From Psammoneis japonica (lineage: Eukaryota), in contig QPGO01000265.1 in NCBI GenBank assembly GCA_008632985.1, positions 1 through 64,000 on the forward strand: 64,000 bases of DNA. The letters run 5' to 3'. Position 1 is the first letter of the stretch, and the number at the start of each line of letters is the position of its first letter. The translations under genes were made by a program, and so were the position numbers. Positions 1 through 44,782 of this stretch are shown one piece after another. Below the pieces are notes generated by a model. The model had not been told where the DNA came from, searched no databases, and was given only the letters and a program-made list of their open reading frames with translations.

Positions 1-380
1 ACTTGGGACGAAATCACAGTGTGAGAACCACCCGAATCGAACAAAACACGCATCACACGATTCGACTCATGCCGTTGAATTGATTTTGCAACAAGCAGTG
101 TAGATGGAACCAATGCGGCACGCGAGACTTGCGAACTCATTTTGGGGAGAGGAACATTGTGTTCAAATGCATCTTGATCAAACACATCCCCCTCTTCATT
201 CATGTAATTTTCTGCAGCATTTTCAAATTCAATGGGTGACAATTCGTCAGGATTTTCAAAACAATCAAAAGCAAAACATTCATCATTTCATTCAGGCAAA
301 ACACAATCATTTTCTTCAACAAACACTTCTCTCACAGGCAATTGGGAGCATTCAGCTCTGGAGCATTCAGCTCCTTCTTC
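1..380 (-). pseudogene. pol: Start of A1 pol (aspartic protease)
   Basis: In frame after gag TGA; reads MRVLFDSGGSHT. Confidence 0.8.
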
Positions 381-1631
381 TCAGAACTGCCGAGGAAACT
401 GCCCGTCTGGCTGAAACCTCACCACACCTCCGCATCTTGGAGGGCCTCGTCCGATCACATCGAAATGGTGCACATCACCACGAGGAGCTTCTCGAGCCTG
501 GTTGTCATTGTTCACATTGTCTGCTTGAGCAGCACATCCGTCGGCCTGTCCTTGGCCTCCACGGTTGTTGTTTTCATTGTGGTGATGTTGACCACCACCT
601 TGGTTGCCATTGTCATTTTGATTTCCGTTGTTGTTGTTGTTGTTACAACAGGCACCACGACCTCCTTGGTTCTGGTTGCCACGACCACCAAAGCGTCCAC
701 CTCCTCCACGGCCTTGACCACAGCCTCCTTGGAAACGACCTCTGCCTCGACCTCCACCGCCACGGCCTCCTCCTCGACCGCCACGGTTCTGAGGCCCACG
801 AAAGTTAGGGTTGTTTGGATTGTCATGACATTGGCCCCACGCATGCCTTCCATGGTGCCACGGGACCGGACACAGATCACCTGCCTTCGGTTGGCCCTTG
901 CTGTCCTTCTTGTCATGGTTTCCCTTTTTGTTGCTGGAGTTCCCTCCGTTGCCATCACTGGACTTGCGCTTCTTGTCATCTTGACCGTCGGCAAACACTT
1001 TCTCGTCACTCATGTGGGCTTGGACATCCACCATAGAATCCGCAACAAGGTTCTTGCCTGCACGAATGCAGGACTGCTGCCAGGTCAAAGGGAAGGCACA
1101 AAAGATGACATTCTTCTGCTCCTGCTCTGTAAGCACAGGAACGGTGCCAGGCAAACGGTTGGTGTGACGAAACAACGTCTCCATGCGATCAATGTGAGTT
1201 TCAGATTCCGCTGAGTAAGGCTTTTTGCATGTGGGCAAGTGCATCTTCATCGTGTCGCGAGCTGTTGGTTTCACACAGCGCAGACAACAGGCTGAGACAG
1301 CCTGATCAAATCGAGCTGCCGTCCGTTGATTCTGTGGGACACCCGCGGCAATGTTCTGCCATTTCGCCTCCGCTGTTCCTTGGAGACAATCTTCGAAAGC
1401 ATCAAATAATTCCGTTCCGGCATCACAATCTAGCTGTCTTGCCACCTTCCAGAACCTGTCCTCCACGTGCAACAATGATTCAATTCCATGCTCTCCTGTG
1501 AAAATAGGACACATTTTTGAAAGTTTGGCACTGTCATCGAAGGTTTGAGTGAGCTTCACTTCCTGTAGCTCAGAATCCACGAATTTGATTTTATGCTCAA
1601 CACACGCTTTCTCCAAGGCTTCTTGACACAT
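381..1631 (-). CDS. gag: Gag of A1 (Cys/His knuckle CPVPWHHGRHAWGQC, RGG/N-rich tail)
   Basis: Open ORF 381..1643, ATG at 1631; ends at an in-frame TGA followed by the protease frame. Confidence 0.85.
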   Translation of the reverse strand: MCQEALEKACVEHKIKFVDSELQEVKLTQTFDDSAKLSKMCPIFTGEHGIESLLHVEDRFWKVARQLDCDAGTELFDAFEDCLQGTAEAKWQNIAAGVPQNQRTAARFDQAVSACCLRCVKPTARDTMKMHLPTCKKPYSAESETHIDRMETLFRHTNRLPGTVPVLTEQEQKNVIFCAFPLTWQQSCIRAGKNLVADSMVDVQAHMSDEKVFADGQDDKKRKSSDGNGGNSSNKKGNHDKKDSKGQPKAGDLCPVPWHHGRHAWGQCHDNPNNPNFRGPQNRGGRGGGRGGGGRGRGRFQGGCGQGRGGGGRFGGRGNQNQGGRGACCNNNNNNGNQNDNGNQGGGQHHHNENNNRGGQGQADGCAAQADNVNNDNQAREAPRGDVHHFDVIGRGPPRCGGVVRFQPDGQFPRQF

Positions 1632-1908
1632 GGCGATGAACAATTTCAGCGATCAAACAATCAACAATCCACAAGATAAACGAAATAAAACGCTCCCAAT
1701 TGATCCATACAACGAGAACAATCAACAACCAAACAACAACGAATTCAAGAGTGACGATGCGAGATTCGAGTTCAAACAAACGCTGCTCCGAATCGCCAAT
1801 TTCACGAGCATGATTACGCTGCTGCTCTGATCGACTTCGAATGAAATTTTCTGCACGAGCTCGTAAATAAATTTTCTCTCTTCTCGACAACACTCTTCGC
1901 GTTGTCAC
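1597..1908 (-). CDS. Small coiled-coil + transmembrane ORF upstream of and overlapping gag (start ATG mutated to GTG in this copy)
   Basis: Same ~103-aa frame is open in A2 and A3; hydrophobic run FVVVWLLIVLVVWINWERFISFILWIV. Confidence 0.6.
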   Translation of the reverse strand: MTTRRVLSRREKIYLRARAENFIRSRSEQQRNHAREIGDSEQRLFELESRIVTLEFVVVWLLIVLVVWINWERFISFILWIVDCLIAEIVHRHVSRSLGESVC

Positions 1909-1956
1909 AAAGTTGACAATGCAATGAACAAGCTGTGACAACGACTGCAATTACAG

Positions 1957-2141
1957 TGCAAGATCTAGCTTGAGATGACTTGATGAAAGTTGTGGGAGAA
2001 CCGAGAAGGGACCCGATCAACTCAATCGCTGATCGGAGAACACACTTCTAACGGCTTCCTGAATGTCTAATACGTTGGTTAATGTGTGCACATCAGAGAG
2101 GGCACACTTGGTCATAAAAGCACATGTGCCTGTCTCATTCA
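1957..2141 (-). repeat. Family A LTR (185 bp, TG..CA)
   Basis: Matches 24655-24836, 30124-30350, 36192-36376, 57007-57191. Confidence 0.92.
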
Positions 2142-2646: not shown

Positions 2647-4061
2647 TTTTCCACGCTTTTGCGGCGACTTCCTGATGTGCCTGTGAGGAGCGTGGACTCT
2701 ACCATTGAAACGTCATTTCACATTGAGGACTCTCCGGAGCTTCGTAGTGAAAGTGACCGTGCAGCAACCATGCTAGCTGCTAAGTGCAAAAAGGCCGATC
2801 TCACTAAGATCGTACATGAAACGAAAGGCCTTGATGACATGCAGCAGAAGGAGCTGCACGCTCTTTTACTTGAGCACGAAGCGTCATTCGATGGAACGCT
2901 CGGCAGGTGGAATGGCAAACCTTGCCATGTGCAACTTGAGGAAGGAGTAAAATCACACCATGCTTGTCCATGTGCGGTGCCTAAGAGGTGTGAAAGACTG
3001 GTGTGTGATGAACTTGACAGACTCTGTGAGATTGGAGTTCTCAAGAAGGTTGGTCGATTGGAATGCGCTGCACCTTCTTTCGTGATGCCAAAAACCGATC
3101 AGATGACTCGGTTTATAAACGACTTCAGAGAACTGAACAAACGCACAGTGCGAATGCCGCATCCTCTGCCGAATGTACAAGATGTGTTGCTTCGGCTCAA
3201 GAATTTCACATGGGCTGCATCTCTAGATTTGAACATGGGATGCCACCACGTGCGACTCGATGCGAGTTCTAGACGACTCTGTACTCTCATTCTTCCTGGG
3301 GCAAACATGAGATGCAAAGCTTGCCCATGGGACTCTGCAACAGTCCAGATGTCTTTCAAGAGAAGTGTCAGACCTCTTTGCAGATCTGTGGCATGTGAGG
3401 ACTTACATTGATGATTTGCTCACAATCACAAAGGGCACCTTTGAGGACCACCTAGAAAAGTTAGACAAAGTCTTGGAAAGGCTTCAAAAGGCTGGTCTAA
3501 AGGTCAATGCATGGAAGTCTGACTTCTGCCAGACCCAAACAGAGCACTTGGGCCACCTGGTGAACAGAGAAGGCATCAAGCCAACTCCCAAAAAAGTTGC
3601 AGCAATTCAAAAGCTTGCTGCTCCCAAGACCAAGAAGCAGCTCAGAAGCTTCATTGGCCTTGTAAACTGCTGCAGGGATGTCTGGATACGAAGATCAGAC
3701 GTCCCAGCACCCCTTGCTAAGCTTGCAGGCAAGAACAGCATGTGGGAATGGACCTCAGCAGAAGAGGACGCATTTCAAACTGTAAAAAAGGTGGTGGCAG
3801 AGCAAGTGCTTCTGGTCCACCCTGACTTTTCCAACCTTTTGAGATTCACACTGATGCTTCTAAGTGTCAGTTGGGAGCAGCAACATCTCAAGATAACAAG
3901 CCAACAGCGTTCTGTAGTTGCAAACTGATGAACGCTCAGCTCAACTACACCACGACTGAACGTGAGTTGCTTTCAATCGTGGAAACGTTGAAGGAGTTCT
4001 GAAATGTACTCCTTGGTCATCGTATGATCGTGTGCACTGACCACAAAAATTTGACATGTAA

Positions 4062-6440: not shown

Positions 6441-7641
6441 TTTTCCCATCATTGAATCTGTTCACAACAGTTCAACCGGTTCATCAGATGGGGAGTTCAG
6501 GACATCCAAGCAGCTTCGTTGTCTTTGGATCCTCCAAGCATCGCACCACGAGACGAGGCCTCCTGATTGGATGCCCCAAGTCTCGCACCTTGAGACCAGG
6601 CCTCCTGACTGGATGCCTCAAGTCTCGTGCCTCGAGACTGGGCCTCCTGGTTGGATGCCCCAAGTCTTGTACCTCGAGACCAGGCCTCCTGACTGGATGC
6701 CCCAAGTCTCGTGCCTTGAGACCAGGCCTCCGGATTGGATCCCTCAAGTCTCGTACCTTGAGACCAGGTCTCCTGATTGGATGTCCCAAGTCTCGTACCT
6801 CGAGACTGGGCCTCCTGATCGGATGCCTCAAGTCTCGTACATCGAGACTGGGCCTCCAGATTGGATCCTCCATGTCTCGTACCTCAAGACTCGGCCTCCG
6901 GATTGGATCCCTCAAGCCTTGCGCCACGAGACTCGGCCTCCCAATTGGATCCCCCAAGTCTCACACCTCAAGACTTGGCCTCCTGATTGGATCCCCGAAG
7001 ACTCGTGTCACAAGACTGGCAAGTCCTTTTGGATTCCAGAAGTCTTGCAGCACGGGACTGGTTGCCCCAATCAGACATCTGCAGTCTTGCACCACAAGAT
7101 GTCTTGCTCCAATCCGATCCCCAAAGGCTTGCACCTTGAGACTCGTTCCTCCAATTGGACCAGTCTCTCAGGAGATGCAGCTGAGCTTGCAGTTGGATTG
7201 GTGGAACACAAGACCACCGCTTGTGCCTTTGAACTCATGCTTGCTCTGTTCCCCGAGTCGTGCAAACGCCATGCCACCCTGCTCGAGCACTGCTCTGTTT
7301 TTCTGGCAGCAGCCCAGTGTGGCAACCGTTCCAAGAACCAACAGACAGCTGTCATTCTTTACGACCTTCGCTCAGGGAGTGAAGGTGATGTTAACTTGTT
7401 TGCATTGTCCTGCGATGTTGCCCCGCTGTTCAACATTGTCGACCAGACCAAGCTTTGCTCCTTCCATTGCAAGTGCGGATGTGGAATCCCACAAGATCCC
7501 AAGTGTGCCTTGAGCTTTGAAAAGCACAACGGCATCTGCAATTGGGGAGACGCAGCTCATCTCAAGATGACCCACTTGGAGAATGCAACGTTGCTCCAGG
7601 ATCTTGATCCTTTCTTGTCTCCTCATGTTTTGGTGCTTTGA
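6025..7641 (+). CDS. Hypothetical 538-aa repetitive ORF of element K
   Basis: Open frame spanning K interior with 14-aa repeats ETRPPDWMPQVSYL; no known domain seen. Confidence 0.35.
   Translation: MASKAAAFAPRKPRAANLHVSTAVTLHDLRLGSDGDDNLLLVSPDGEPPESGVSRAPHVLTNPPASKLGPVQDCSPCAGPHFETSWDTPPMASKAAAFAPRKPHAANLHVSTAVTLHDLHLGSDGDDNLLLVSLDGEPPFPIIESVHNSSTGSSDGEFRTSKQLRCLWILQASHHETRPPDWMPQVSHLETRPPDWMPQVSCLETGPPGWMPQVLYLETRPPDWMPQVSCLETRPPDWIPQVSYLETRSPDWMSQVSYLETGPPDRMPQVSYIETGPPDWILHVSYLKTRPPDWIPQALRHETRPPNWIPQVSHLKTWPPDWIPEDSCHKTGKSFWIPEVLQHGTGCPNQTSAVLHHKMSCSNPIPKGLHLETRSSNWTSLSGDAAELAVGLVEHKTTACAFELMLALFPESCKRHATLLEHCSVFLAAAQCGNRSKNQQTAVILYDLRSGSEGDVNLFALSCDVAPLFNIVDQTKLCSFHCKCGCGIPQDPKCALSFEKHNGICNWGDAAHLKMTHLENATLLQDLDPFLSPHVLVL
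6547..7165 (+). repeat. 42-bp minisatellite, about 14 units, degenerating 3'
   Basis: Unit ~GAGACCAGGCCTCCTGATTGGATGCCCCAAGTCTCGTACCTC. Confidence 0.9.
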
Positions 7642-12416: not shown

Positions 12417-12932
12417 CAGTCTGCTCACTCTAACATGTGCTTTTTAACATGTGCCCTCTCCATCACATGCTAAAAATCCGGCCTGACCCCTTGGACAAAG
12501 GTCAGACTTCCCTGTTAACAGACAGGCCGACAGACCGACAGACCATTTCGCGAATCCGTGATGCGACTGGTTTGAGGCAATGAAACCATTAAGACCACAC
12601 TTGCAACAACTGCAAACACCCTTGTTGACCATCATTTACCTCTAAGAAGTGGTCCTGGGCTTCTTTGTACCTAGCAGGACCAAAGAATTGATGAAGACAG
12701 GTCATGAGTTTTTTCAAAAATTACAGTGGTGGCCGTGCGAACCATGGCCCCAAAGCATCGTGAGTCGTGAGGGAGAAGCGCAAGATTTCAAAGTACGTAA
12801 ATCTTGGCACTGCTTCCACGTACGTGGCAAATGTGCGTGCTTTTGTACGAGGATGGAATGACATGTGCCCTCTCCACAACATGTGCTAAAGCACCGCATG
12901 CACCCCCAGCATGTGTTGACATGAGCAGACTG
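12417..12932. mobile_element. Tc1/mariner/pogo-type MITE
   Basis: TIR CAGTCTGCTCA/TGAGCAGACTG; flanks TG and CA where a TA TSD is expected; removal restores HLCPILFVSLNT. Confidence 0.8.
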
Positions 12933-14550
12933 CACTGTTTGTCTCTCTGAACACCAGACATGGCAAAGAGGATAAACAAATCGTAAAGGCTCTTTTGGAC
13001 AGTGGTGCCAGTGGCACCCTAGTGTCCTCTAAGTGTGCAAAAAGACTAAGACAAAAAGAGTCACCCAAAAAGACCTGGGACACTGCCGCTGGCACATTTT
13101 CCACGTCTCTGGGCTGCAGAATGGACATGACATTTCCTGAACTGTCATCTACGGCGGAAACCAGACAACTGGTGCACACACATGACAGAGACCTGGGACA
13201 CTACGATGTGATCATTGGACGTGACATGCTCGAGCCTCTAGGTGCAGACATTGCATTCTCCGAACAGGCCATCAAATGGCCTAGAGCCAATGCTGACATT
13301 CCCATGAGGAGCGTGGACTCTACTGTTGAAACGTCATTTCACATCGAGGACTCTCCGGAACTTTGCAGTGAAAGTGACCGTGTGGCGACCACACTGGCCG
13401 CTAAGTACGAAAAGGCCGATCTCACGAAAGTCGTACACAAGACGAAGGGCCTTGATGAGAAGCAGCAGAAGGAACTGCACGCTCTCCCACTTGGGTGTGA
13501 AGCGTCATTTGACGGAACGCTTGGCAGGTGGAATGGAAAACCCCACCATGTGCAACTTGAAGAAGGAGCAAAACCACATCATGCACGCCCACATGCAGTG
13601 CCTAAGAGGTGCAAAAGGTTGGTGCATGATGAAGTTGACAGACTCTGTAAGATTGGAGTTCTCAAGAAGGTCAATCGGTTGGAATGGGCTGCACCTTCTT
13701 TTGTGATGCCAAAAACCAATCAACAATTCGGTTTATAAATGACTTCAGAGAACTGAATGAACGCATGGTGCGAATGCCGCATCCTCTGCCGAACATGCAA
13801 GATGTGTTGCTTCGGCTCAAGAATTTCATGTGGGCTGCATCTCTGGACCTGAACATGGGACATTGCCACCTGCACTCAAAGCAAGCTCTAGATGACTCTG
13901 CACTCTCATTCTTCCTTGGGGCAAATGTGGGATGCAAAGCTTGCCCATGGGACCATGCAATAGTCCAGATGTCTTTCAAGAGAAGATGTCAGACCTCTTT
14001 GCAGATTTGTGGCATGTGAGGACCTACATTGATGATTTGTTTACAATCACAAAGGGCACCATTGAGGACCACCTAGAAAAGCTGGACAAAGTCTTGGAAA
14101 GGCTCCAAAGGCTGGTTTGAAGGTCAATGCATGGAAGTCTGACTTCTGCCAGACCCAAGTGAGCACTTGGGCTGTCTGGTGACAGAGAAGGCATCAAACC
14201 AACTCCCAAGAAAGTTGCAGCAATTCAAAAGCTTGCTGCTCCCAAGACCAAGAAGCAGCTCAGAAGCTTTGCTGGCCTTGTGAACTGCCACAGGGATGTC
14301 TGGATGCGAAGATCAGATGTCCTGGCACCCCTTGCTGAGCTTGCAGCAAGAATGGCAAATGGGAATGGACCTCAGTTGAAGAGGCAGCTTTTCAAACTGT
14401 GAAAAGGTGGTGGCAGAGCAAGTGCTTCTGGTCCACCCTGATTTTTCCAAACCTTTTGAGATTCATGCTGATGCATCTGAGCATCAGTTAGGAACAGTGA
14501 CATCTCAAGAGAACAAGCCAATGGCGTCACAGTCGCAAACTGATGAACGC

Positions 14551-15867: not shown

Positions 15868-16414
15868 TTAACTGTGCCATGACTGAACGTGAGTTGCTCT
15901 CAATCGTGGAAACGCTGAAGGAGTTCCGAAATGCACTCCTTGGTCATCGTATTATCGTGTGCACTGACCATAAAAATTTAACATGTAAAGCATTCAACAC
16001 TGAGCACGTCATGCGCTGGCGACTTCTATGTGAAGAACACGGCCCTGAATTACGACATGTTAAAGGCCATAAGAATCTGGTCGTGGACGCGTTAAGTAGA
16101 TTGGAACTTGACCCTCCATTGACGTCAGAATCTGATGTACCCGCACTCGATGCCCCTGACATACGACCTTTAGCTGAAGCATTCGGAACTGATGACGTGG
16201 ACAAAGTCACTCGCATTCCCGTCAACTTTAAACAGCTTCAGAAACTTCAACAAACGGATGGGACATTGCTGCGCAAAGCTCGTCTTTCCGACAAACATAC
16301 AATGCATTCTTTCTGTGGAGGAGAAACGTCGTCAAGACAGTTGACATGTTACGAGGACAGAATTGTTGTCCCAAAGTCATTACAGGACCCAATGACTGAA
16401 TGGCACCACAATCA

Positions 16415-20399: not shown

Positions 20400-20775
20400 A
20401 AATGTGCACACCACTGCCAAGGTGACCCCGATGCAATTAGTCTTCAGACGTGATGCGACACTGTCTGTTGCCTGTCGCGCTGGGTGGAGGTGTGTCCAGA
20501 GCAGAAAGCAGAAATTGATTTGGTTAAATGACAAACGTGAAAACTTGAAGCGAAAGGAGTGCCAACATACGAAGGGACAACTTGTGCTTGTCAAGCAAGA
20601 GCAACAGACGAAATTTGGCACTGACAGTTGCACAGGGCCAGCTGCAGTTGTTCAAGTCAATGACAATGGCACCCTTCGTGTGCAAGAAGGTACGCTGGTG
20701 GTCACTCATGACACACGACAAATTGTCCCTTGCCAGCAGCAGGCCTCGCTCGTACGACCTTGTCACAGGGGCAAG

Positions 20776-29798: not shown

Positions 29799-30075
29799 GG
29801 CGATGAACAATTTCAGCAATCAAATGATCAACAATCCACAAGATAAACAAAATAAAACGTTCCCAATTGATCCACACAATGAGAACAATCAACAACCAAA
29901 CAATGACGAATTCAAGAATGGCAATACGAGACTCGAGTTCAAACAACCGCTGCTCCGAATTGCCAATTTCACGAGTGTAATCATGCTGCGATTCTGATTG
30001 ACTTCGAATGAAATTTTCTGCACGAGCTCGTAAATAAATTTTCTCTCTTCTCGACAACACTCTTCGCGTTGTCAT
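29764..30075 (-). CDS. Family A small membrane-protein ORF (103 aa)
   Basis: ATG-initiated, open, conserved in three copies, overlaps gag start by 35 nt. Confidence 0.65.
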   Translation of the reverse strand: MTTRRVLSRREKIYLRARAENFIRSQSESQHDYTREIGNSEQRLFELESRIAILEFVIVWLLIVLIVWINWERFILFILWIVDHLIAEIVHRHASRSLGESVC

Positions 30076-30849
30076 AAAGTTGACAATGCAATGAACAAGC
30101 TATGACAACGACTGTAATTACAGCGCAAGATCTAGCTTGAGATGACTTGATAAAAGTTGTGGGAGAACCGAGGAGAGACCCGATCAACTCAATCGCTGAT
30201 CAGAGAACACACTTCTAACGGCTTCCTGAATGTCCAATCGCTGATCGAAACTGACTTCTAACGGCTTCTTGAATGTCTAATGCGTCAGTTAACACACACA
30301 CATCAGAGAGGGCACACTCGGTCATAAAGCACATGTGCCTATCTCATTCAGTGGAAAGCATTCCAAGATTCAATTCTGTCATGGAAAGTCTTTACTTTCC
30401 ACCACGCTGTGGTGGAAAGCATTCCATGATGCCATTCTGTCGTGGAAAGTCATCAAATGTCATTGAAAGTCATCAATGACCACTCATCGTGGAAAGTCAT
30501 TTGTTAAATGTCAATGACTGGAAATGTCGTGATGTGACATCACACACTCTAAACAATGTCAAAGAGGGGTGAGCCACATTCCAACTGGCATTGCGCAATC
30601 GCGCACATGGTGAACGGTCTTGATAAGTTGTCCACGAATGCTTTCTAAAAATTGTGGGAAAAGCTGCGATTGACTGCAGCCACAGTGTTTGGGTTTCTGT
30701 CGCAGAATTTCTTTGACGTGTCAACAATCTCGGTCATTTGAATCTCCCGAATCTTGCAGCTGCTGACGCAATTATGATGTAGAAGTTTGCTTCACTCTTC
30801 CCTTCCGAGATTCATGCGAATGCTTTGAATCGCAATCCACTTGATCATG

Positions 30850-33800
30850 CCAAAGTCGATGCGGCAAAATGCGCTGAATGTTGATTCTTTCAAATGCATG
30901 AGGCGCTCTTTGCATGGTGATGTTTCCATTTACATGAACCTGTGTGATGGGAAAGGGACCAAAAGATCTTTCTTCCAATTTGGTGGGATCATCTGTTTTG
31001 ACCAAAATTTGTTGCCCGACACGACAGTCAAAAAAGCGTCTTTTGAGATTTTGCCAACGCAAGTCATCATCAATCAACACTTGCCGACGATTCTGAGTGG
31101 CAATTAAATCTGCAATGAGAGGCAAATCAAGGAACATGTCTCTCTGGCAGATGAGAGCTCCTGGCGAAATCCCCAAAACTCTTGAGGTGGCGCATCGTAA
31201 ACCATGCATGGTTGTGGCCAATGCATTGTCAATGATGTGTTGAGCCTCTGTCATGTTGTAAGGAGGATGTCCCCTGACTGTGGTTTGAATGATGTTGCCA
31301 GCTGTTTTGTGCATTCTTTTGCAAATGGCGTTGGCTTGAGGATTTCCAGTGGTGGTTTCCACATCTTTGATTCCAGCCCTCGCCAACAGAATCTGAAATG
31401 GCTCACCAATGAATTCACCGCCCTTGTCATGGATGCAGCGGTTTGGCTTCAGATGTCTCGCCAACCAACAATTAGCAAACTTCATCTGCGCATGATCTGA
31501 AGTCTTGTTTTGTCAATGCGAACCAATTCCACAAGGTTGGAAACAGTGTCAATCGCTGTCAATGCGCTAAATTCAACCTCCTGTTCTTGCACTTGTGCTT
31601 TCCAAGGACCAATTGAATCAACGGCCACTTCATCCCACGGAACTAAAGGAGCTTCTCTTGGTGGCAAGCAACCATGTCCAACTCCCCAAAGTTTGTTCCT
31701 TTGGCACACATCGCAATGATAATTTTCGACCAATGGGTGCAACGACGGATGATGGCAATGCAAATGAATCGTGTGACAGAGCTTTTGCACGCCACAATGC
31801 CCCAAAACTTGATGATGCCACCTGACCACAGGCGCCAACAAAGCAGTTGGCAAAGCAATTTTCCAATCATTTTCTTGAGCATTAATTTCAGGCCTCCAAC
31901 AAATTGATGGAACTCCACCGACGCATCGAGTCGGAAATCGAAGCGGATTCCTCTGCCGCTCTTGATTCAGCTCACAATCCTCAAACTGAAACCTTTGCAT
32001 GTCAGGACAATTCAAAGGGTGTTGCATTTCTTCCAGACTCGGACAATTCAAGAAACAATCTGCCAATTCTTGATCTTGAACGGTGCAGAATAGAGTGTTT
32101 AATTCCGGGCCCAAATTTTCCTCAAGCGACTCGTCTTCTGGAGCCACAGCAGCTGGAGGAACCGAAAAATCCACAACAGCACCTTTCGACTCCACTTTAG
32201 AAGAACTCTTCCCTTCCATGGTTTTCTCCACAGGAGGAAATCGTGAAAAGAAATCAGCCATAATGTTCTCTTTGCCTTTAACATGTTCAAACTTGGGTGC
32301 AAATTCTTCAAGAAAAAGTCGCCAGCGGAGCACTCGTTGTGCATTGAGCATCTTGAAAGTCAAATTCTTATGATCTGTGTAGACTGTCATTTCAGCTCCC
32401 AACAACATAGAGCAAAATTCCTTGAAACAAAGAACTGCGGCAAGAATTTCTTTCTCCACAGTAGAACAGTTCTTTTGAGCTGCATTGAGTTTTCGAGACC
32501 AACATGCGATCAGCTTGCCATTCTGCGTGATGACGGCACCAAGCTGACAGTTGCTGGCATCTGTGTAAATTTGAAAAGGAAGGTTATGATCGGGACAGGT
32601 GAGTGACACATCACCCACCACAATGGCCTCAATCTCCTCAAAGGATTTCTGACAAGCTGGAGTCCACTCAAAATGTTGTTTTCCGGTCAAATCAGTCCAT
32701 GGTGCCAAAACGTGAGATCGCCGAGGCCACATGTCACGACAACAAGTGACGGCTCCAACAAAAGATCTAAGTTGTGTGTGGTTCTTGGGAGGAGTGAGCT
32801 TAAGCACAGCCTCTGCTTTCTTCTTCCAAGGCTTAACACCTTCTGGAGTCATCCAATGTCCCAAAAAATCAGTTTCTTGAATGGCCCATTCGCACTTGAG
32901 TGGGTTCACTTTCAAACCGTTTTGTTCCAAACGTTGCAACGCGGCACTCAACACTGCCAAATGCTCAGACCAAACCATTGAGAAGAGACCAACATCATCA
33001 ATGAAACAATCCACATCAAGCTCATTCATCACTTCTTCAACAACTGCTTGAGCAACATCTGCTGCTGGTTTCAAACCCATCGCGAGTCGACAATGTTGAA
33101 ACTTGCCGCAAGGAGTGACAACAGTGCACAGTTCCTTGGATTCTTCGTCCAGCTCTAAAGCATGATAGAACACAGACAGATCCAACTTGGTGAAGTGCTT
33201 GCACCCTTTTCTCTTCTTGACAATGTCTTGCATTCTTGGCAAAGGATAGATTGGCCTCTTCAACGCCTTGTTGAGCGCACAAAAATCGGATGCCCATCGC
33301 ACTCGTTGATCCTTTTTAGGAATGACAAATGAAGGAGACGCCCAACAGGCAGGACCACATGGCCTCAGCACTTCTGTCTGAACCAAATGCTGAAGTTCTT
33401 TCTTGAAAACCTCTTCATGAACCTTTGGAACTGAGCATGGTCGAGCATGAACCGGAATCGTGTTAGGATCGATTTCCAAATGAACCAATTTATGTGGGTG
33501 TCGACCCAATTTTCCGTCGAACACTTTTGGGAACTTGGCCAGTGCTTGCTGCAACTCCAGTTGTTGCTCTCTTGACAGATGTGTTTGCCTCTTAGCTGCT
33601 TCTTCTGGAGATGCTGACTCACACTTGGCGTCCAGAATTTGCGCAGCGAATGCATAAAACTCGACTGCATCGATTTCTTCTTCTTCGACTTCTGGACCTG
33701 CCAAAGCAAAACAAGCATTCTCTGCATTGTCCCAAAAGGCAAGCTCTTTCACAGGTGTGGACTTGTCCAACCACTTGATTGTCCTTGATGAGAAATTTAC

Positions 33801-34344
33801 ATCAATTCCCACCTTGGTCAAAAAATACGATCCAAGAATCACGTTGCAACGACACGGTGTTTGAAACATCAGAGCTTTTTGGAAATCAATGCTTCTTGAT
33901 CTGTCAAATTCAGGTGGCATTTTTGTCTCCAAACCGACTGTTCTGTTGCTCTTCATTGGTCCTGCAGCTGCATTGCATGCTGCTGTCTTTTTTGAGCAGG
34001 CTTGGAGCAGCTCCACGTGCCAAACATCGCTCGTGAATGAGAGCAGTCGCACTGCCTGAATCAAATGATGCTCTCAACAAATGAGAAGAGTGAGCTCCAT
34101 TCATTTGTTTGCATGCAAGCACTGATGCAGGTGCCATGTCAGGATTCATGTTTTTTGTTTTGGGCACCGGCATGCCAGCACAAAGCAATCCCATCGGCTC
34201 TTCTTGATTTTTCGCGCCGTCGATTTCATGTGACAAACATGCATCACACAAAGATTCGTGTTCAATTGGTGCATTTGTGTCAACAGTGATGGTGTCGTCA
34301 ACTTCAAAGCTGACGCCAGGACTGGAGCAGCACTCCAAACTGGA
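30850..34344 (-). pseudogene. pol: F pol (PR-RT-RH-IN)
   Basis: FDSGSA (33910..34338), FIDD and YTDAS (31482..34064), HDKGGEF and NPQANAIC (30772..31485). Confidence 0.9.
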
Positions 34345-35662
34345 TCATAATCCAGGTCCTCTTAGATGTGGACCTCGTCCGACATCCGTTCCTCCTGACG
34401 TCTCGTCAGGACCTCCTGGTGGACCACAGCCTGCCATGTCGAAATGGTGCACATCTGCACCCCATTCTTGTGACTGAGCATCAGTCGGAGGAGCTCGTCG
34501 AGCCGGATGAGCATTTGGTTCTTCTGAACCGCTCTGCACCTGATTTTGATTCGCGTGAAAATTTTTGAGGCGAATTCTGCGGACCGCATCCTCGGCCCAT
34601 GCTGTTTTGGTTGTAAACACGGCCATGTCCGCCTTGACCACGTCCAAAACTGTTGTTGGGAGTGCATCCACCATTGCCACGTCCACGTCCAGCGTAGTTG
34701 GCGTTCTGAGGACCATAAAATCGACCTCCATAATTTCCTCGGCCTGGACATGGGTTTCGACCTCGTCCACAACCTGCATCTCGGCCTGCACTTGGTGAAC
34801 CTCGGCCACCTCTCTGAAAATGAGGATTTGGATTGTAATTTGGGCTCTTGGGATTCTCCTTGCAATTTCGCCACAGATGAGGCACTGCAGAATCCTTGTG
34901 CAACTGACAACAAGAATCGGGACCAAACTTCTTCCCATTCCCGGTAGACTCCGCATCTCTAGCCTTGCGCTTCTCAGTGTCATCATCAGGCTTAGCAGCA
35001 CTTTTTTGATCAGCAAATCCTTTCTCATTGACATGTGCTGAATGACATCTTCTAAAGAATCAGCACTGGTGTCTTTTCCAGCACGCACATGATTCTGTTT
35101 CCATGTCATCGGCATGCCTGTGAACACAACATTCTTGATTTGCTGCTCATTGAGCAAAGGTTCAGTTCCAGGTAGCTTGTTAGCATGACACGACATTTGA
35201 ATCATCCTGTCAGCATGCTCGTGAGGAGAATCACCAAAAGGTTTAGAAGAATTTTTCAAAAATTCAAACATCGCATCATGCGCTTGATGATCGCAATGTC
35301 GCTGATAAAAAGCGTGCGATTTCCACGTCAAACCTGGCCATGGTCCAATCTGCTTCCGCGATGCCTGAAACCAAATTGCTCCACACGTCTTGAGCATTGT
35401 CTTCTGATGCTTCTTCAAAATGGGTGAATTTTTCAGGTCCTTCATCACAATCCAAATGCTCAGCACAGTTCTCAAAACGCTCTGCAGTGTAGAGCAAGCA
35501 CTCAATGCCGCACTTGCCAGTGAACTGAGGGCACATTTTCTGTTTCTTAGTGCCATCGTCGTAGTTCTGTACGAGTTTCACTTTGTCCAAATCTCCGTGT
35601 TTGAAGGTTGGTTTGCACACAAAGCACGGTGCTCTCAGCAAAGCTCTCACCAAATGTGACAT
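34345..35662 (-). pseudogene. gag: F gag, frameshifted
   Basis: KMCPQFTGKCGIECLLY is homologous to A gag KMCPIFTGEHGIESLLH; RGG-rich tail. Confidence 0.8.
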
Positions 35663-36424
35663 TGCGTTTAAGGTAAAAGATGCACAACAAAGAAAGGAGA
35701 AGGAAAGAACAAGACACAGTGTGATCACAGTGAACGGTCTTGATGAGTTGTCCACGAATGCTTTCTAAAAATTGTGGGAAAAGCTGCGATTGACTGCAGC
35801 CACAGTTGTTTGGGTTTCTGTTGCAGAATTTCTTCGAGGTGCCAACAATCCCGGTCATTCGAATCTCCCGAATCTTGCAGCTGCTGACGTAATTATGATG
35901 CAGAAGTTCACTTCACATGGCCTCGAAGCATCATTGATGCTTCTTGATGCCGTGGCGAAACGTCTCCGAAAGGCATGCGAAGTTCTTGATGCGTGCATTG
36001 AAGGCCTCCTGACGAGACCGAGCCCGGCTCTTGTTGTTCCAAAAATCATGTTGGAAAATGGCAAGATTTACAGGCATCAAGGCGTTGCTGTGAGATCAAA
36101 ATTTTGTCACATGACCCCATTTTATGGGCATTTACACAAGCCTCAAAAGGTGGAAAGTCATCGTGGAAAGTCATGTGACTTTCCACGTCACTGAATGAGA
36201 CAGGCACATGCACTCTATGACCGAGTGTGCCCTCTCTGACACATGTGTGTTAACTGACGTACCAGACATTCAAGAAGCCGTTAGAAGTCAGTTCCGATCA
36301 GCGATTGTGCTGATCGGGTCTCTTCTCGGTTCTCTCGCAACCTGTTTTATCAAGTCATCTCAAGCTAGATCTTGCACTGTAATTACAGTCGTTGTCACAG
36401 CTTGCTCATTGCATCATCCATTTC

Positions 36425-36736
36425 ATGACAACGTGCAGAGCACTGTTGAAAAGAGAGAAAGCTCATTTACATGCTCATGCAGAAAATTTCATTAGAAATC
36501 AATCGGAACCTCAGCGTAATTACACTCGTGAAATTGGCGATTCGGAGCAGCATTTGTTTGAACTCGAAGCTCGTGTCACTGCGCTTGAATTTGTCATTGT
36601 TTGGTTGTTGATTGTTCTCGTTGTGTGGATCAATTGGGAGCGCATTGTCTCATTTGCTGTGTGGATTGTTGATTCTTTGATCGCTGAAATTGTTCATCGT
36701 CATGTGTCAAGAAGCCTTGGAGAAAGCGTGCATTGA
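36425..36736 (+). CDS. Family A small membrane-protein ORF (103 aa)
   Basis: ATG at 36425; same frame, length and hydrophobic segment as in A1 and A2. Confidence 0.65.
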   Translation: MTTCRALLKREKAHLHAHAENFIRNQSEPQRNYTREIGDSEQHLFELEARVTALEFVIVWLLIVLVVWINWERIVSFAVWIVDSLIAEIVHRHVSRSLGESVH

Positions 36737-37968
36737 GCATAAAACCAAATTTTTGGATTCGGAATTGCCTGAAGTGAAACTCACTCAAACTTTTGACGAT
36801 GGAACTAAACTGTCAAAGATGTGTCCCATTTTTACAGGAGAACATGGAATTGAATCACTGTTGCATGTGGAGGACCGTTTCTGGAGGGTGGCAAGACAGT
36901 TGGATTGTGACACCGGAACGGAACTCTTCGATGCTTTTGAGGATTGCTCACAAGGCACTGCAGAGGCAAAATGGCAGAATGTCACGGCAGGCATTCCACA
37001 GAATCAAAGGATGGTAGCTCGGTTCAATCAAGCCATTGCGGATTGCTGTCTGCGCTGTGTGAAGCCGACAGCTCGTGATGCGATGAAGATGTGCTTGCCT
37101 GCTTGCAAGAAACCTCACTCCGCGGAATCTGCAACACACATTGATCGTGTGGAAACTTTGTTTCGCTGTGCCAACCGTTTGCCCAGAACCGTCCCTGAAC
37201 TCACAGAGCAGGAACAGAAAAATGTTGTCTTCTGTGCCTTTCCTTTGACATGGCAGCAATCCTGTGTTCGTGCGGGGCAAGAATCATCTTGTTGCAGATT
37301 CAATGGTGGATGTTCAAGCCTGCATGAGCAATGAGAAGGTGTTTGCTGATGGTCAAGATGACAAGAAACACAAGTCCAATGATGGCAATGGAGGGAATTC
37401 CAGCAACAAAAAGGGCAACCGTGACAAGAAGGACACTGAGGGTCAACCCAAGGCTGGTGATCCATGTCCGGTCCCGTGGCATCATGGAAGACATGCATGG
37501 GGCCAGTGTTGTGACAATCCAAACAATCCCAACTATCGTGGACCTCAAAACCGCGGCGGTCAAGGTGGAGGTTGTGGCGGTGGAGGTCGAGGCGGAGGTC
37601 GCTTCCAAAGAGGCCGTGGTCCTGGCCGTGGTGGAGGTGGACGCTTTGGCGGTCGTGGCAACCAAAACCAAGGAGGTCGTGGTGCCTGTCATGATAATTA
37701 CAACAACAACAACAACAACAATGGGAATCAAAACAACAATGGCAACCAAGGTGGTGGTGGCCAACATTGTTGCAATGACAACAACAATAGTGGTGGCCAA
37801 AGTCAGGCCAACGGTCATGCTGCTCAAGCAGACAATGTGAATGACAACCAGGCTTGAGAAGCTCTTCGTGGTGAGATGCACCATTTCGATGTGATCGGAC
37901 GAGGCCCTCCACATTCCGGAGGTGTGGTGAGGTTTCAGCCAGATGGGCAGTTTCCTCGGCAGTTCTGA
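36702..37968 (+). pseudogene. gag: A3 gag (frameshift near 37280, premature TGA 37855)
   Basis: ORFs 36690..37334 and 37264..37857 match A1 gag. Confidence 0.85.
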
Positions 37969-38878
37969 GAAGAAGGAGCTGAATGCTCCAGAGCTGAATG
38001 CTCCCAATTGCCTGCATGTGAAGTGTTTGTTGAAGATGATTGTGCTGTGCCTGAAAATTTGCCTGAAAGTTTTGCTTTTGATTGTTTTGAAAATCCTGAC
38101 GAATTGTTGCCTGTTGAATTTGAAGATGCTGCAGAAAATCACATGAATGAAGAGGGGGACGTGTTCGATCAAGATGCATTTGAACACAACATTCCTCTCC
38201 CCAAAATGGGTTCGCAAGTCTCGCGTACCGCATTGGTCCCATCAACTCCATTGGTTGCCAAATCGATCCAGCGTCATGAGTCGAATTGCGTGATGCGTGT
38301 GCCATTTGATTCTGGTGGCTCTCACACTGTGATCTCTTCTCAAGTTTTACCTCGTGGAGTTGTGCCATCCATTGATGAGCAAGGAGCACGAGCTTTTCAA
38401 ACCGTTGCAGGTCCTTTTCCAGTCGGGTCGTTGGGTGGCTCTGAGTGATGTTGCACTGCCCGAATTCGACAAGACCAGAAGAGTTGATGGTTGTGTGGCT
38501 CATGTGTTTGATGCTCCGTGTGCATGTGACATTGTTTTGGGTTGAGATTTCCCAGACAAAATTGGGCTTCATTTAAATTATGACACAAGAACTCTACGTT
38601 GGTTGGACCGTGTTGTTCCGATGAAGGAGCCTTGTCATTGGTCCAAGTCCTACAACTGGTGTGTTGCACTAGACCGAATGGATGAATTCGATGAAGACTA
38701 CGAGGACGAATCGAACTACAGATGTGACGATGGATGTGACAGCCATGTGTTGGATGCTTAGCATGAAGCAACGGATCCTGCGGACGTGGTTTGCAACCTA
38801 GATTGCCTGACGGAAGAGCAAAAGAAGAAGCCATCAACAGTGTTGGAAAAATGCTCAACCTCATTTGACGGAACCTTG
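37969..38878 (+). pseudogene. pol: A3 pol, 5' part (protease)
   Basis: FDSGGSHT in ORF 38008..38448, in frame with the gag stop. Confidence 0.85.
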
Positions 38879-39945: not shown

Positions 39946-40360
39946 TGCAACATGCGTTGTTGTGCACGTATTATATGTGTGTGTCTATGTGTTAAATAAA
40001 AGTACATTTCAATCGTACGTCAATCGTGGGTTCGTACGAAGTACAGATCGGTCACACAGAAGTGATCGGATGTCGAGAATCGCAAATGCGATCGTACGAT
40101 GATGTTGACATCTTGTGTGTCAATGTCAATCGTATCCGGACAATCTGTTGTCACGATCATATTCTCCGAAAGGCCTTTTGTCTGCAGGAGCAGTACAAAA
40201 GGTTTAGGCTGTTGAGAACCCGTTCGGAGAAACCCAAAATGATTGCGTAGAAATAATTCTCATAATTTTCACTTTTTGAACTTCGTTCTACTTTCGTTTA
40301 CACTCGTTCTTCGAGCACAGTGCATTGTGCACACACAACACAGAAGGTAACAAGTTCAAG

Positions 40361-41515
40361 ATGAAGCTTTCACCTCATGCAACCAACTCTAAAACTTCGT
40401 TAAGGCAGGAGAAAATCGTTCCTCAACCGCTGGAATCGAACTCCGAGCCGAAGAGCCTCAAACCGAGCCAGTGCCTCAAGATGGAGCAACGTTTTCATCC
40501 CGAGAGGAAGGACAGCCGTACCTGCACCATCAATGTCGAGCACTACAAGAAACAAGGTGTCCCCAAGTTCATCGAATTTCTCAAGAGCTACGATCAACTT
40601 CTAGTGGGCCAGAACATCAGGAAGCAATCTGACAAGTTTCGTCTCATGCGTGTGTCACTCCAAGGAGACGCTCTACGTGCTTTCGAGAATGCGGCAGCGA
40701 ACCTTGAAGACGAATCTGCAGAAGGAAGCTTCGAGAAATGCCTGCAACATCTCACGAGGCATGTGTTTCCCAAGAACGCACTTTCGGTGCAGAAACGTTA
40801 TTTGCGTCGTGATCTCAAGAAGCCGGAGTCCATGAAAGTGTGCAAAATTGCTGCTTGGGTCCAGGAAGTCAACGAAGACCTCAAGTTCTATCCTCCCTTT
40901 GGGAAGGAACAGAAGATCGAGGACGACGAGCTCAAGGACATCCTCTTCAATCTTGCACCTCGAAAGTGGCAGCGTCAGTCGACCGTCCAGGGTTTCGAAA
41001 TTTTGAAACATACCTGTGACGAGTTGGTTGAGTTCTTGGAGCGCCTGGAGGTCGCAGAAGACACATTCGATGGCATTCATGCCAAGGCTGATGGCAGTGG
41101 CGGCACTGCATCAAAAGCCAAGAGTGGTTCCCAACGTGGTTCCAAAAATGGTCACCAACATGGTGCCGAAAAATCTCAGTCCGAGAAGTGGTGCGTTTCA
41201 TGCGAGAAATCCACTCATAACACGGACAAGTGCTGGTCGATCAAAAGACTTGCGAAAGAACGCCGTGGGAACTATGAACCCGACCCGAAACGGCGCCGTT
41301 CAAATGGCAATCGCACGTGGTCTCGTCGCGATAACAACAACGCCGCTCGCAAAGAAGAGTTGAATGCTGTGGCGATCCAAGCAGTTCAAAAAATGCTCAA
41401 AGCGAGTTCCTCGAACAATGACAAAAAGCACAAGAGCAAAGATTGTGATTCTGACACCCTTGACGAGGAGAATCATCAGTTTGAAAAAATGACGCGCAGT
41501 GATTCTGAGGAATGA
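40361..41515 (+). CDS. gag: C gag (knuckle CVSCEKSTHNTDKC)
   Basis: Open ORF homologous to D gag (LQGDAL..F). Confidence 0.87.
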   Translation: MKLSPHATNSKTSLRQEKIVPQPLESNSEPKSLKPSQCLKMEQRFHPERKDSRTCTINVEHYKKQGVPKFIEFLKSYDQLLVGQNIRKQSDKFRLMRVSLQGDALRAFENAAANLEDESAEGSFEKCLQHLTRHVFPKNALSVQKRYLRRDLKKPESMKVCKIAAWVQEVNEDLKFYPPFGKEQKIEDDELKDILFNLAPRKWQRQSTVQGFEILKHTCDELVEFLERLEVAEDTFDGIHAKADGSGGTASKAKSGSQRGSKNGHQHGAEKSQSEKWCVSCEKSTHNTDKCWSIKRLAKERRGNYEPDPKRRRSNGNRTWSRRDNNNAARKEELNAVAIQAVQKMLKASSSNNDKKHKSKDCDSDTLDEENHQFEKMTRSDSEE

Positions 41516-44500
41516 CTTGCACCGCAAGAGGAGTCTTACGCTCCACTGGACATTAGGAAGCCCAGAATTAGGGCCAAAGTAATTCACACTAGTCCAGCAG
41601 TCGTCGCCCACATGAATGCTTCATTGGGTAAAGCGAAAAATAAGCCTCTACGCGTTCTCCTCGACAGCGGAACATCGTCAACCATAATTTTGCGCAAATT
41701 CACGCGGAAACTCAGAACCAAAGTATCCGCCACCAAACTCTGGGAAACCCAAGGAGGGCTCTTTACGACTGACAGTCGATGTAAGATCCAATTCTCCTTA
41801 CCCGAATTTGACAAACACAAGATGATCGAAACAACGGCACATGTTGACAACTCCCCTTCTTCTTCGAGTCGTTATGATGTGATCATGGGACGCGACTTAA
41901 TGTCAAGTCTTGGGATGATGTTGGACTTCTCCAATGAAGAGATTAAATGGGAAGATGCAACTGCTCCTATGAAGAATGTTGATGCACTCTTCGATGCCGA
42001 TGTTTTTAAGTTGATTGCCGATCACATTGAGGAATCTCATGCAGTGATCAGTCTTAATGACAGGGTCAATCGGATCCTTGACTCAGACTGTCACGCTGCA
42101 AACCTCAACAATGTGACTGCAGCAGCCACTCATCTAACTCCTGAAGAGCAGAAGCAGCTGAACTTCCTCTTAAAAAGATTTGAAAACCTTTTCGATGGTT
42201 CTCTAGGCAAATGGACCGGGAAACCGGTGGATTTGAAGTTGAAATCGGGCGTGAGTCCGCATCATGCCAAACCATTTCCCATGCCACAAGCCTTGGAGGC
42301 GACTGCTCGTAAGGAGGTTGAAAGACCATGCAAGTTGAAAGTCTTAAGAAAAATAAACTGTTCTGAATGGGCGGCTCCAACCTTTATTCAACCCAAGAAA
42401 AATGGTAGAGTTCGGTTCTTATCCGACTTTCGTGAGCTAAATAAGAGGTTAATTCGCACTCCGTTTCCTCTGCCCAACATTCAGGATATGCTACAGAAGC
42501 TCGAAGGCTTCATGCATGCAACGTCCCTAGATTTAAACATGGGATACTATCACATCGAATTGATGCCGCATGCACGTCGCTTGTGCACGATCGTCATGCC
42601 TTGGGGCAAACATGAGTGCTGTAGACTCCCGATGGGAATCTGTGGAGCTCCAGATATTTTCCAAGAGCACATGAGTGAGCTCATGGCAGGTCTGGAGTTC
42701 GTCAGAACTTATGTTGACGATATGTTGTGTCTTACAAAAGGTGATTTTCAAGACCACCTCAAGAAGCTTGAAACGGTGTTCTTACGCCTAGAACAAGCCG
42801 GATTGAAGGTCAACGCCGAGAAGTCCTTTTTCGCTAAACCCGAAGTAGACTATCTAGGCTTTCATATCACCCGTAAGGGCATCAGTCCGATTCCAAAAAA
42901 AGTAGAAGCGATTCACGCGATCGCAACTCCTAAAACTCGCAAGGAATTGCAACGCTTTATCGGCATGATCAACTGCTGTCGAGACATGTGGCCTCGACGA
43001 TCTCATGTTTTAGCTCCTTTAGCCAAACTCACTTCTACCCAAGTAAAGTGGCAATGGACCGAAACAGAACAAAAAGCCTTCGAAAATGTGAAGCGCATCA
43101 TCTCCAAAGACATGCCACCATCATACCCAAATTTTAACACACCCTTTGAGATGTGCACCGATGCTAGTAATTCTCAATTGGGGGCGGTTGTTACTCAGAA
43201 AAACCGACCAATTGCCTTCTACAGCCGCAAGCTGAATGGAGCGCAGACGCGTTGTGCTACAACGGAAAAAGAACTGTTGTCCATAGTGGAGACGTTAAAA
43301 GAGTTCCGTAACACACTGTTTGGCCAACAGATAAACACATGTGCGGATCAAAAAAATCTCACACATAAAAATTTCACAACGGACAGAGTCATGCGTTGGC
43401 GTCTAATGATAGAAGAATACAGTCCCAAAATAACATACCTTGAGGGCAAGGCAAATATTGTCGCAGATGCGATCAGCCGACTTACTGTGAAGAAAATAGA
43501 ACCTATGGAAACCCTCAGCACAGAAGAGCTAGCTGAAAAGGTCCTGCCAAAATCCTACGACAATGTCTTTCCGTTAAATTACAAAGTTCTCGATTATGAA
43601 CAAAAACGGGACAAAGACATTCTCTCCCAATTGTCAAATAAGACGTTTCATACGAAGACTTTTCGTGGAGGCGAGCGAGACCGGTTGCTCACATGTCATA
43701 AGGATAAAATTGTCGTCCCGAGGACGTTACAAAAGGCAGTGATAGATTGGTGTCATACGTACCTTCTTCACCCTGGCATAAATCGAACAGAAGAAACGAT
43801 CTCACAACACCTGTGGTGGTCCACCTTACGTGAAGACATACGAAAATGCGTGTCGAGATGTGAGACGTGCCAAAAATTCAAAAAGAAACACAAGAAATAT
43901 GGACATTTACCTCCTAAGTGCGCAGAATCCGTACCATGGGAACGACTGTGTGTGGACCTCATTGGGCCATACAAAATACGTCGTAAGGGAAAGAAAGAAC
44001 CCCTAGTCCTGAAATGTTTAACAATGATCGATCCAGCAACCGGATGGTTTGAAGTTGTGAAAATCCCAAATAAGGAGTCCACAACTGTAGCTGGACTACT
44101 AGAACGAACATGGTTAAGTAGATGTCCTTGGCCATCGTTAATTACATGTGACCGTGGAAGTGAGTTCATCGGACACCAATTTAGAGAAATGGTGCAAGAT
44201 GATTATGGCATTAAAGTCAAGCCTATAACTACACGAAATCCACAAGCAAACGCAATTATTGAACGCGTACATCAAGTGCTGGGGAACATGCTCCACACAT
44301 TTGATTTGCAACATACACCTCTAGATACTGAGGATCCTTTCGCTGGAATGCTATCAGCGGTAGCATTTGCGGTACGTTCTATGTATCACACCACTACGCA
44401 AGCTACACCAGGACAACTAGTCTTCAATAGAGACATGACATTTAACGTCCAACATGTCGCAGACTGGAAATTAATCCAGCAGCGAAAACAAGAAATCATA

Positions 44501-44716: not shown

Positions 44717-44782
44717 CTCTAATGTGCAATTAGGGAGGCGAATGCAATGTGCGTTGTTATGTACGTATTATGTGTGTATATC

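Follow-up and report, generated by a model that had tools for sequence, protein, structure and literature searches.

Repeat-induced point mutation (RIP), APOBEC editing and the decay of CpG dinucleotides all destroy G:C pairs. To our knowledge, a context-specific process that converts A:T pairs into G:C pairs in foreign DNA was unknown before a preprint of 2026. In this work we analyzed a window of 64,000 nucleotides from Psammoneis japonica (assembly GCA_008632985.1, contig QPGO01000265.1, positions 1 to 64,000 of the forward strand), a pile of nested transposons in which the dinucleotide TpA is strongly depleted, nearly all of it having been converted to TpG or CpA over about 40 kb. A preliminary description of this DNA had proposed that a repeat-wide hypermutation of this kind extends over positions 1-43400, and had named it a candidate 'inverse RIP' system of genome defence.

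The closest described system is the TpA>TpG/CpA hypermutation of integrated giant-virus and virophage DNA in Bigelowiella natans (Mettrop et al., bioRxiv 10.64898/2026.01.13.699255). According to the accessible text of that preprint, 231 of the 302 nuclear mutations detected in mutation-accumulation lines fell in one integrated giant-virus region and one virophage region, and 230 of these 231 were A>G or T>C changes, all of them at TpA, at a rate of about 6e-7 per site per generation; the hypermutation was confined to a subset of the lines (10.64898/2026.01.13.699255). The genome of B. natans carries 124 clusters that are poor in TpA and rich in CpA+TpG, reverse transcriptase (RT) and DDE domains are enriched among the TpA-poor genes, and an ADAT2-like deaminase was proposed as the responsible enzyme (10.64898/2026.01.13.699255). 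Given that the main target in B. natans is single-copy, the process is not repeat-induced in that alga. In dinoflagellates, the modified base 5-hydroxymethyluracil (5hmU) is, according to the available part of a published account, enriched on repeat elements and helps to silence transposons, and older work cited there reported that T is replaced preferentially in TA and TC dinucleotides (PMC11572971). Our literature search gave no further report of repeat-targeted TpA loss beyond the B. natans preprint.

Self-comparison and Pfam searches showed that the window includes Ty3/gypsy long terminal repeat (LTR) elements, one DNA transposon with terminal inverted repeats (TIRs) and two tandem arrays (Table 1). 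The Pfam domains found across the window are of transposon type only, i.e. reverse transcriptase, RNase H, integrase, aspartic protease and one DUF7869; the same search found no host gene, and tRNA genes, rRNA and other Rfam families were searched for in the window and none was found. All its parts are transposon or satellite, and unique host DNA lies outside the comparisons made here. Over positions 1-43400 the observed/expected ratio (O/E) obtained from dinucleotide composition is 0.25 for TpA, 1.50 for TG, 1.42 for CA and 0.75 for CG; over positions 43401-64000 the corresponding values are 0.66, 1.22, 1.17 and 1.04. In 4-kb blocks the TpA O/E stays at 0.16-0.32 up to 40 kb. At 1-kb resolution, TA has an O/E of 0.43 or less in 38 of the 39 windows that cover positions 1-39000 (range 0.03-0.49) and in 4 of the 25 that cover positions 39001-64000, three of these four forming a block at 54-57 kb. 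The extent proposed earlier holds well up to about 39 kb, where the depletion is greatest, but the region at 40-43 kb is intermediate (TA O/E 0.32-0.63), and the second TpA-poor block at 54-57 kb (O/E 0.30-0.46) lies outside the proposed range. As a baseline, 78 gypsy relatives from metagenomes have a TA O/E of 0.56-1.06 with a median of 0.74, in a set that was retrieved with a pattern containing Tyr-Tyr and that leans towards unmutated relatives. The CpG deficit parallels the TpA deficit along the window, and the G+C content per 2-kb block is 47-54% in the depleted part versus 38-49% in the less affected part.

Per kb, the depleted part contains 2.3-2.4 times fewer TAA and TAG stop codons, and TGA is not rarer. 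As a consequence of this loss, long frames stay open on both strands of dead elements; at a length of 150 codons or more, 49 stop-free frames were counted in the 43.4 kb of the depleted part versus 11 in the remaining 20.6 kb, and gene finders would probably call such frames genes. Overlapping long frames without a family match were also observed, for instance 27990-29381 (+) over 28665-29819 (-).

The direction of the change can be read from conserved tyrosine codons (TAY), in which the replacement of TA by TG or CA yields Cys (TGY) or His (CAY). All nine gypsy peptides that had been quoted in their Tyr or Cys/His versions were located in the window: the Tyr forms at 51265-51993 (-), with NMGYYH present additionally at 42536-42553 (+), and the Cys/His forms at 3232-3679 (+) and 13574-14297 (+). 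At the same codon, the family B copies often have unlike outcomes (NMGCHH/NMGHCH, EHLGHLV/EHLGCLV and VNCCRD/VNCHRD). A first set of 26 Tyr columns, conserved in 40 homologues from outside the window, was used to score two pol frames. The frame at 41516-44530 carries Tyr in 13 of them, Cys in 7 and His in 3, and the frame at 31482-34073 carries Tyr in 1, Cys in 7 and His in 6, so that Cys or His occupies 13 of its 20 aligned conserved Tyr positions. With a second set of 31 columns, defined on 120 homologues, the frame at 41516-44530, which is the best-preserved pol, has Cys or His at 11 of the 27 Tyr columns that align; over all 31 columns the 120 homologues themselves have no Cys or His in 88 cases, one in 25 and two in 7. 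In this same pol most of the columns with a conserved Phe, Gln, Trp, Cys or His are kept. Only 2 Pro were found at its 56 conserved Leu columns, and the exchange of Leu for Pro or Ser, although proposed in the right direction, does not occur as often as had been stated. Tyr accounts for 0.6-1.8% of the residues in the affected pol frames versus a median of 3.9% in the homologues, and in four pol frames read on the sense strand the Cys outcomes number 22 and the His outcomes 15. Together with the O/E values, the polarisation by outside homologues and outgroup copies supports a directional change from TA to TG or CA, as first proposed.

The specificity of the change was analyzed in repeat families in which an outgroup copy provides the ancestral state. 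Per ancestral site, TpA>G amounts to 6/32 and 4/32 in copies of family A, 14/102 in family G and 13/25 in family P; in the less affected sister copies it amounts to 3/102 (family G) and 2/25 (family P). The rate of TpA>G in the more depleted copies is therefore 0.125-0.52, versus 0.004-0.065 per site for ApA>G and GpA>G (ApA>G, 5-9 changes per 138-308 sites, 0.019-0.065; GpA>G, 1-6 changes per 112-266 sites, 0.004-0.045), and once polarised A>G is higher at TpA than in the other A contexts, in line with the specificity claimed before. Raised values of 'CpA>G' and 'CpA>T' also appear in the outgroup comparison, which we infer to be parsimony errors arising from parallel hits at hypermutable CG and TA. 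The dinucleotide found opposite TA in the partner copy (n=293) is CA in 138 cases, TG in 105 and another one in 50, i.e. 83% are transitions (243/293), and when the TA and CG classes are excluded the ratio of transitions to transversions is ordinary (for example 83:96 and 117:85). An asymmetry between copies is evident in family P, where 40 sites are TG or CA in 24655-27643 and TA in 54336-57191, and 7 sites show the reverse. The TG and CA outcomes are mixed site by site, in both orientations. Regarding the wider context, in the old block the 4-mer ATAT is the lowest (O/E 0.04, 16 counts), followed by ATAC/GTAT (0.09), and TTAA is the highest of the NTAN words (0.39); the rates based on pairs of copies indicate a weak preference for a pyrimidine 3' of the A (0.25-0.27 versus 0.17-0.18), and in them the identity of the base two positions 5' of the A makes no difference. 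These two lines of evidence conflict, and no firm extended motif can be given. No nucleosome-like period was found among the surviving TAs, which cluster over hundreds of bases.

It could be argued that no special process is needed, and that the deficit results from selection against UpA in transcripts, from GC-biased gene conversion, or from families that were already TA-poor on arrival. A mild under-representation of TpA occurs in most genomes, as in the 78 related loci mentioned above, and in all three G-family copies of the window (40000-45000, 45000-49000 and 58000-62000) TA O/E rises from the 5' end (about 0.3-0.55) to the 3' end (about 0.85). Since this gradient is shared, part of the TA loss looks inherited from the active lineage rather than gained in place. 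Nevertheless, dead nested fragments and satellites are affected, and on both strands; gene conversion would raise all changes from A/T to G/C, whereas TpA alone is affected; copies of the same family differ in TA O/E (0.12 versus 0.33 and 0.64 versus 0.77); and conserved Tyr residues of the catalytic domains have been destroyed. An origin without a special process is for these reasons very improbable.

The timing of the changes was addressed with LTR pairs. The two LTRs of an element derive from a single template, and the differences between them are therefore changes in the integrated DNA. LTR pair c, with 98.4% identity, differs at 3 of 16 TA sites, 0 of 23 CG sites and 0 of 238 other sites, and in addition has one double difference TG/CA for which an ancestral TA or CG is ambiguous. 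The three single TA differences are all mutated in the left LTR, which adjoins the old depleted block, numbers that are too small to indicate a position effect. LTR pair d differs at 4 of 13 TA, 0 of 6 CG and 2 of 130 other sites. When the young pairs are pooled (c, d and a third one), the differences are 13/45 at TA, 5/59 at CG and 3/693 at other sites (Fisher test, P 1e-14 for TA versus other and P 0.009 for TA versus CG). Under a two-lineage decay model TA is lost about 85 times faster than other sites in the young pairs and about 32 times faster in the middle pairs, and 2.7-4.1 times faster than CpG, rates that are rough given that the background count of the young set is only 3. The more a pair has diverged at background sites, the greater its loss of TA; the loss is further advanced in older copies than in younger ones, and less severe in the younger elements. 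Every older pair shows a higher divergence at CG than at other sites, with differing CG ranging from 5/59 to 73/140 per pair set, and these values, together with the CG O/E given above, agree with the ordinary CpG decay that had been noticed alongside the TpA loss. Four older pairs contain 28, 28, 38 and 60 double differences TG/CA; because such doubles are common and because the family B copies have unlike codon outcomes, the hits are independent and postdate duplication. Differences at TA, TG and CA had previously been illustrated with paired copies labelled H1, H4 and A3; those examples were not matched one to one, and their equivalents were found in the LTR pairs and in the consensus of the 42-bp array, whose units vary among TA, TG and CA.

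The DNA transposon also carries the signature, as had been claimed. The TIR element at 17678-20399 has 29-nt TIRs that are 97% complementary, a TA O/E of 0.15-0.31, and an open reading frame (ORF) of 746 amino acids with the DUF7869 domain at 18004-20244. When compared with the homologue P0121, 6 His and 2 Cys were found at 24 aligned Tyr, and 1 change in the reverse sense. Contigs assembled from a public sequencing run (X1) join position 17666/17669 to 20403, with the element and about 10 flanking bases replaced by 7-10 other letters. The best outside homologue of the DUF7869 ORF is 35% identical, and two weaker matches pair DUF7869 with a homeobox domain; the transposase may belong to a poorly described family.

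From these results, RNA editing can be weighed, in which an ADAR-like enzyme would convert A to I in double-stranded transposon RNA that is then copied into new insertions. Most elements in the window are retrotransposons, and ADAR prefers a U 5' of the edited A (bioRxiv 10.64898/2026.01.13.699255, Discussion). Yet LTRs made from one template differ almost only at TA, the same codon has unlike outcomes in the two family B copies, and runs of same-strand events were not found in three runs tests (P 0.74-0.94). Because the TIR transposon and the two satellites carry the signature, an RNA route is contradicted, and among all the explanations considered here we regard editing of RNA as the least credible. 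The LTR pairs, the TIR transposon and the satellites support instead that the TpA changes arose in DNA, after insertion and alongside CpG decay, which is the timing that had been suggested at the outset.

Error-prone patch repair is a further candidate, by which a polymerase-eta-like synthesis in methylated repeats would misinsert G opposite T at WA motifs. The CpG decay observed implies frequent T:G mismatches, which are possible triggers of repair. Polymerase eta has its hotspot at WA and also produces many transversions, whereas here ApA>G remains at background (0.019-0.065, versus 0.125-0.52 for TpA>G in the depleted copies) and 83% of the differences at TA are transitions. Moreover, the youngest pairs differ at TA without any change at CG (0/23 in LTR pair c and 0/6 in LTR pair d). 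Patch repair is in consequence an improbable source of the signature.

The sequence itself was compared with the contigs of run X1. Of the words sampled from 14000-23999, 55% are present in this run, the only one listed for the stretch; no RNA run was listed for it. Parts of its contigs are identical to the window, for instance over the 1395 bases of 21016-22410 with 0 differences at a depth of about 33, which argues against an assembly slip. Between the window and further copies present in the run there are 242 transitions and 31 transversions, among them adjacent TG/CA doubles. The run may, however, be the source sample of the window, and it does not provide an independent check. This circumstance leaves some room for a systematic error of base calling or assembly at modified bases in repeat DNA, given that in some long-read assemblies the consensus may contain motif-specific errors caused by modified bases. 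However, the separately assembled contigs are exact over up to 1395 bases, a systematic error would give neither outcomes that vary between copies at the same site (TA, TG, CA) nor a TA loss that tracks the divergence of each pair, and the presence of an N gap suggests a scaffolded assembly rather than one made from long reads only. An artefact is accordingly a very slight possibility.

The explanation that we favor, and that is probably correct, is an enzyme-driven modification of bases at TpA, aimed at chromatin that is silenced or foreign, with deamination of adenine as its most likely form. A base-modifying enzyme would be directed to TpA in such chromatin, in DNA that also undergoes CpG decay, and would convert adenine to hypoxanthine at the 5'-TA-3' sites of either strand, whether the DNA is duplex or transiently opened. 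Hypoxanthine would be read as G at the next replication, and the outcomes would be the replacement of Tyr by Cys or His, the loss of TAA and TAG and the rise in G+C. The tRNA deaminases TadA and ADAT2 act naturally on A34, a base preceded by the universal U33, and this fits a preference for TpA. Such a process may serve in defence, or may instead be a by-product of a chromatin mark. A broader reading is that TpA-specific editing of DNA bases, similar to RIP but with the opposite chemistry, erases TA from every repeat class alongside cytosine methylation, perhaps in a eukaryote beyond the one alga, and represents a wider genome defence of protists; we put it forward tentatively, as a possibility that is still somewhat doubtful.

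The main alternative to the deamination of adenine is that thymine is the damaged base: a TET/JBP-type dioxygenase would mark T at TpA in silenced repeats, as 5hmU or a derivative, and mispairing or faulty repair would lead to T>C on either strand. TpA is palindromic and all the counts fit T>C equally well, and CpG decay in the same DNA fits a mark directed by chromatin. On the other hand, 5hmU forms normal pairs with A, has only a weak mutagenic effect and is tolerated by dinoflagellates even at very high levels. The distribution of 5hmU on dinoflagellate repeats and the reported replacement of T in TA and TC speak for this alternative with respect to TA, but TC and GA are not depleted here (O/E 1.10 and 1.11), at odds with the cited preference for both TA and TC (PMC11572971). 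We consider a thymine mark unlikely, while ranking it ahead of all the other alternatives.

Several points weigh against adenine deamination as we have formulated it. The window displays neither the enzyme, nor the lesion, nor a chromatin mark. Because TpA is its own reverse complement, A>G and T>C on both strands are indistinguishable, and because the window is without unique host DNA, a restriction to repeats is not demonstrable. A processive single-strand deaminase might have produced runs of same-strand events, so that the absence of such runs in the three tests also counts here. The bias of the metagenome control towards unmutated relatives and the uncertain independence of run X1 belong to the same list, and the process may be slower, intermittent or different.

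Table 1. Repeats and other elements of the 64,000-nucleotide window, with the coordinates and the main observation for each one
Feature	Coordinates	Strand	Observation
Old block of nested transposon fragments, near-total TpA loss	1-39000	.	TA O/E 0.03-0.49 per kb, TG+CA excess, CpG deficit
Family A repeat, copy 1	1-2141	+	Found by self-comparison
Family A repeat, further copies	27641-30353; 36189-38878	+; -	TA O/E 0.14-0.18 in 3/3 copies
Family B gypsy RT fragment, copy 1	2684-3936	+	Tyr>Cys/His: NMGCHH, EHLGHLV, VNCCRD
Family B gypsy protease/RT fragment, copy 2	12920-14551	+	NMGHCH, EHLGCLV, VNCHRD, PHHARPH
42/126-bp tandem array	6525-7059	.	Units vary at TA/TG/CA positions
TIR (class II) DNA transposon, within a gypsy integrase region	17678-20399	+	29-nt TIRs, DUF7869 ORF
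176-bp satellite, 5.8 copies	23052-24067	.	TA O/E 0.06, TG+CA 1.82
Family P gypsy copy, pol ORF 25826-27436	24655-27643	-	TA O/E 0.12
Family P partner copy	54336-57191	+	TA O/E 0.33
Gypsy element with LTR pair b (30610-30795 / 35730-35916), pol ORF 31482-34073	30610-35916	-	
Young gypsy element G1 with LTR pair c (40007-40324 / 49320-49637)	40007-49637	+	Holds nested G2 and N gap
G1 pol, best-preserved pol	41516-44530	+	1004-aa stop-free frame, 11 Tyr>Cys/His
Nested gypsy element G2 with LTR pair d (44772-44939 / 48914-49084)	44765-49084	-	Inside G1
Gypsy element G3, same family as G2	57905-62191	+	
Family D gypsy RT copy	51265-52764	-	Tyr codons intact (NMGYYH, EYLGYLV, VNYYRD, PYHARPY), TA O/E 0.83-0.96

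Some additional features of the window were observed. A run of 235 N (49085-49319) separates the right LTRs of G2 and G1, and the joint rests on scaffolding. In run X1 the contig depths over the stretch 22350-22683 (~330 bases) sum to about 52,000, versus about 33 for the exact single-copy pieces, which places the stretch in a very high-copy repeat. Only two short loci of (AC)n microsatellites, a class reported to be common in B. natans, are present, a count that is uninformative. Among the 78 related gypsy contigs, two (L055 and L059) are labelled 'marine metagenome', and the remaining names carry no habitat.

The signature is real, striking and rare; it is already in print for one organism, and is extended here to transposons and to a near-total loss of TA. 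TpA hypermutation is not limited to viral insertions and can run nearly to completion, and the process acts on integrated DNA of all transposon classes and accompanies CpG decay. If a natural adenine deaminase of duplex DNA, or a mutagenic modification of thymine, is indeed responsible, the enzyme would be of interest for genome defence and for base editing. In genomes of this kind RIP indices and the dating of insertions by LTR divergence would mislead. In LTR pair c, the youngest, the single-base differences are all at TA and the sole double difference is the ambiguous TG/CA.

When compared with known systems, the process resembles fungal RIP, as far as the sources available to us describe it, in being a transition-only, dinucleotide-specific hypermutation of repeated or foreign DNA that inactivates elements and shifts composition. 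In fungal RIP, C>T changes fall mainly on CpA, which becomes TpA, so that TpA rises and G+C decreases; here TpA is destroyed and G+C is increased, and instead of the TpA excess and lower G+C that mark RIP-affected repeats we found a TpA O/E of 0.25, a CA O/E of 1.42 and repeats that are richer in G+C. The reading as 'inverse RIP' is supported in part, for direction, TpA specificity and timing after insertion; targeting by repetition, on which the comparison with RIP hinges, is conjectural, and the novelty implied was overstated, given that the 2026 preprint describes the same signature. Methylation-driven CpG decay likewise affects silenced repeats and generates TpG and CpA, and it is present in the window as a second process. 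Nonetheless, it acts on another dinucleotide and in the opposite direction (C>T), and the loss of TpA is faster and is seen in young pairs without change at CpG; CpG decay does not explain the TpA loss. The editing of retroelements by ADAR and APOBEC in animals also leaves clusters of transitions fixed in genomic copies of mobile elements, but it acts on RNA or on cDNA before integration and leaves same-strand clusters, whereas here the changes are later than integration, include a DNA transposon and are intermixed between strands. With 5hmU of dinoflagellates the process may share an enzymatic modification on repeats and the preference for T in TA reported there; the available part of that account reports no mutational outcome, and TC, preferred there, is not depleted here (PMC11572971). 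A genome of dinoflagellate size is unlikely, because the contigs of run X1 add up to only 140.7 Mb, at a depth of about 33-fold.

With the accessible text of the B. natans preprint as reference, the targets here are transposons of several classes and satellites instead of viral insertions, and the depletion is deeper, with an O/E of 0.03-0.3 per kb versus 0.45 in the giant-virus region of B. natans. CpG decay co-occurs here, and 'CpG' does not appear in the available text of the preprint. The evidence here is historical, from the comparison of copies, whereas in B. natans de novo mutations were measured; the rate excess is about 85 and 32 times relative to other sites in the same repeats, and about 1000 times in B. 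natans, where whole regions were compared. In both cases the changes are nearly exclusively A:T>G:C at TpA, TpA is depleted with an excess of CpA and TpG, and elements with RT or DDE domains are among the targets. Three properties of the B. natans process, namely changes that are almost only A>G or T>C, their confinement to TpA in both orientations and a rate far above background, are found in the window analyzed here.

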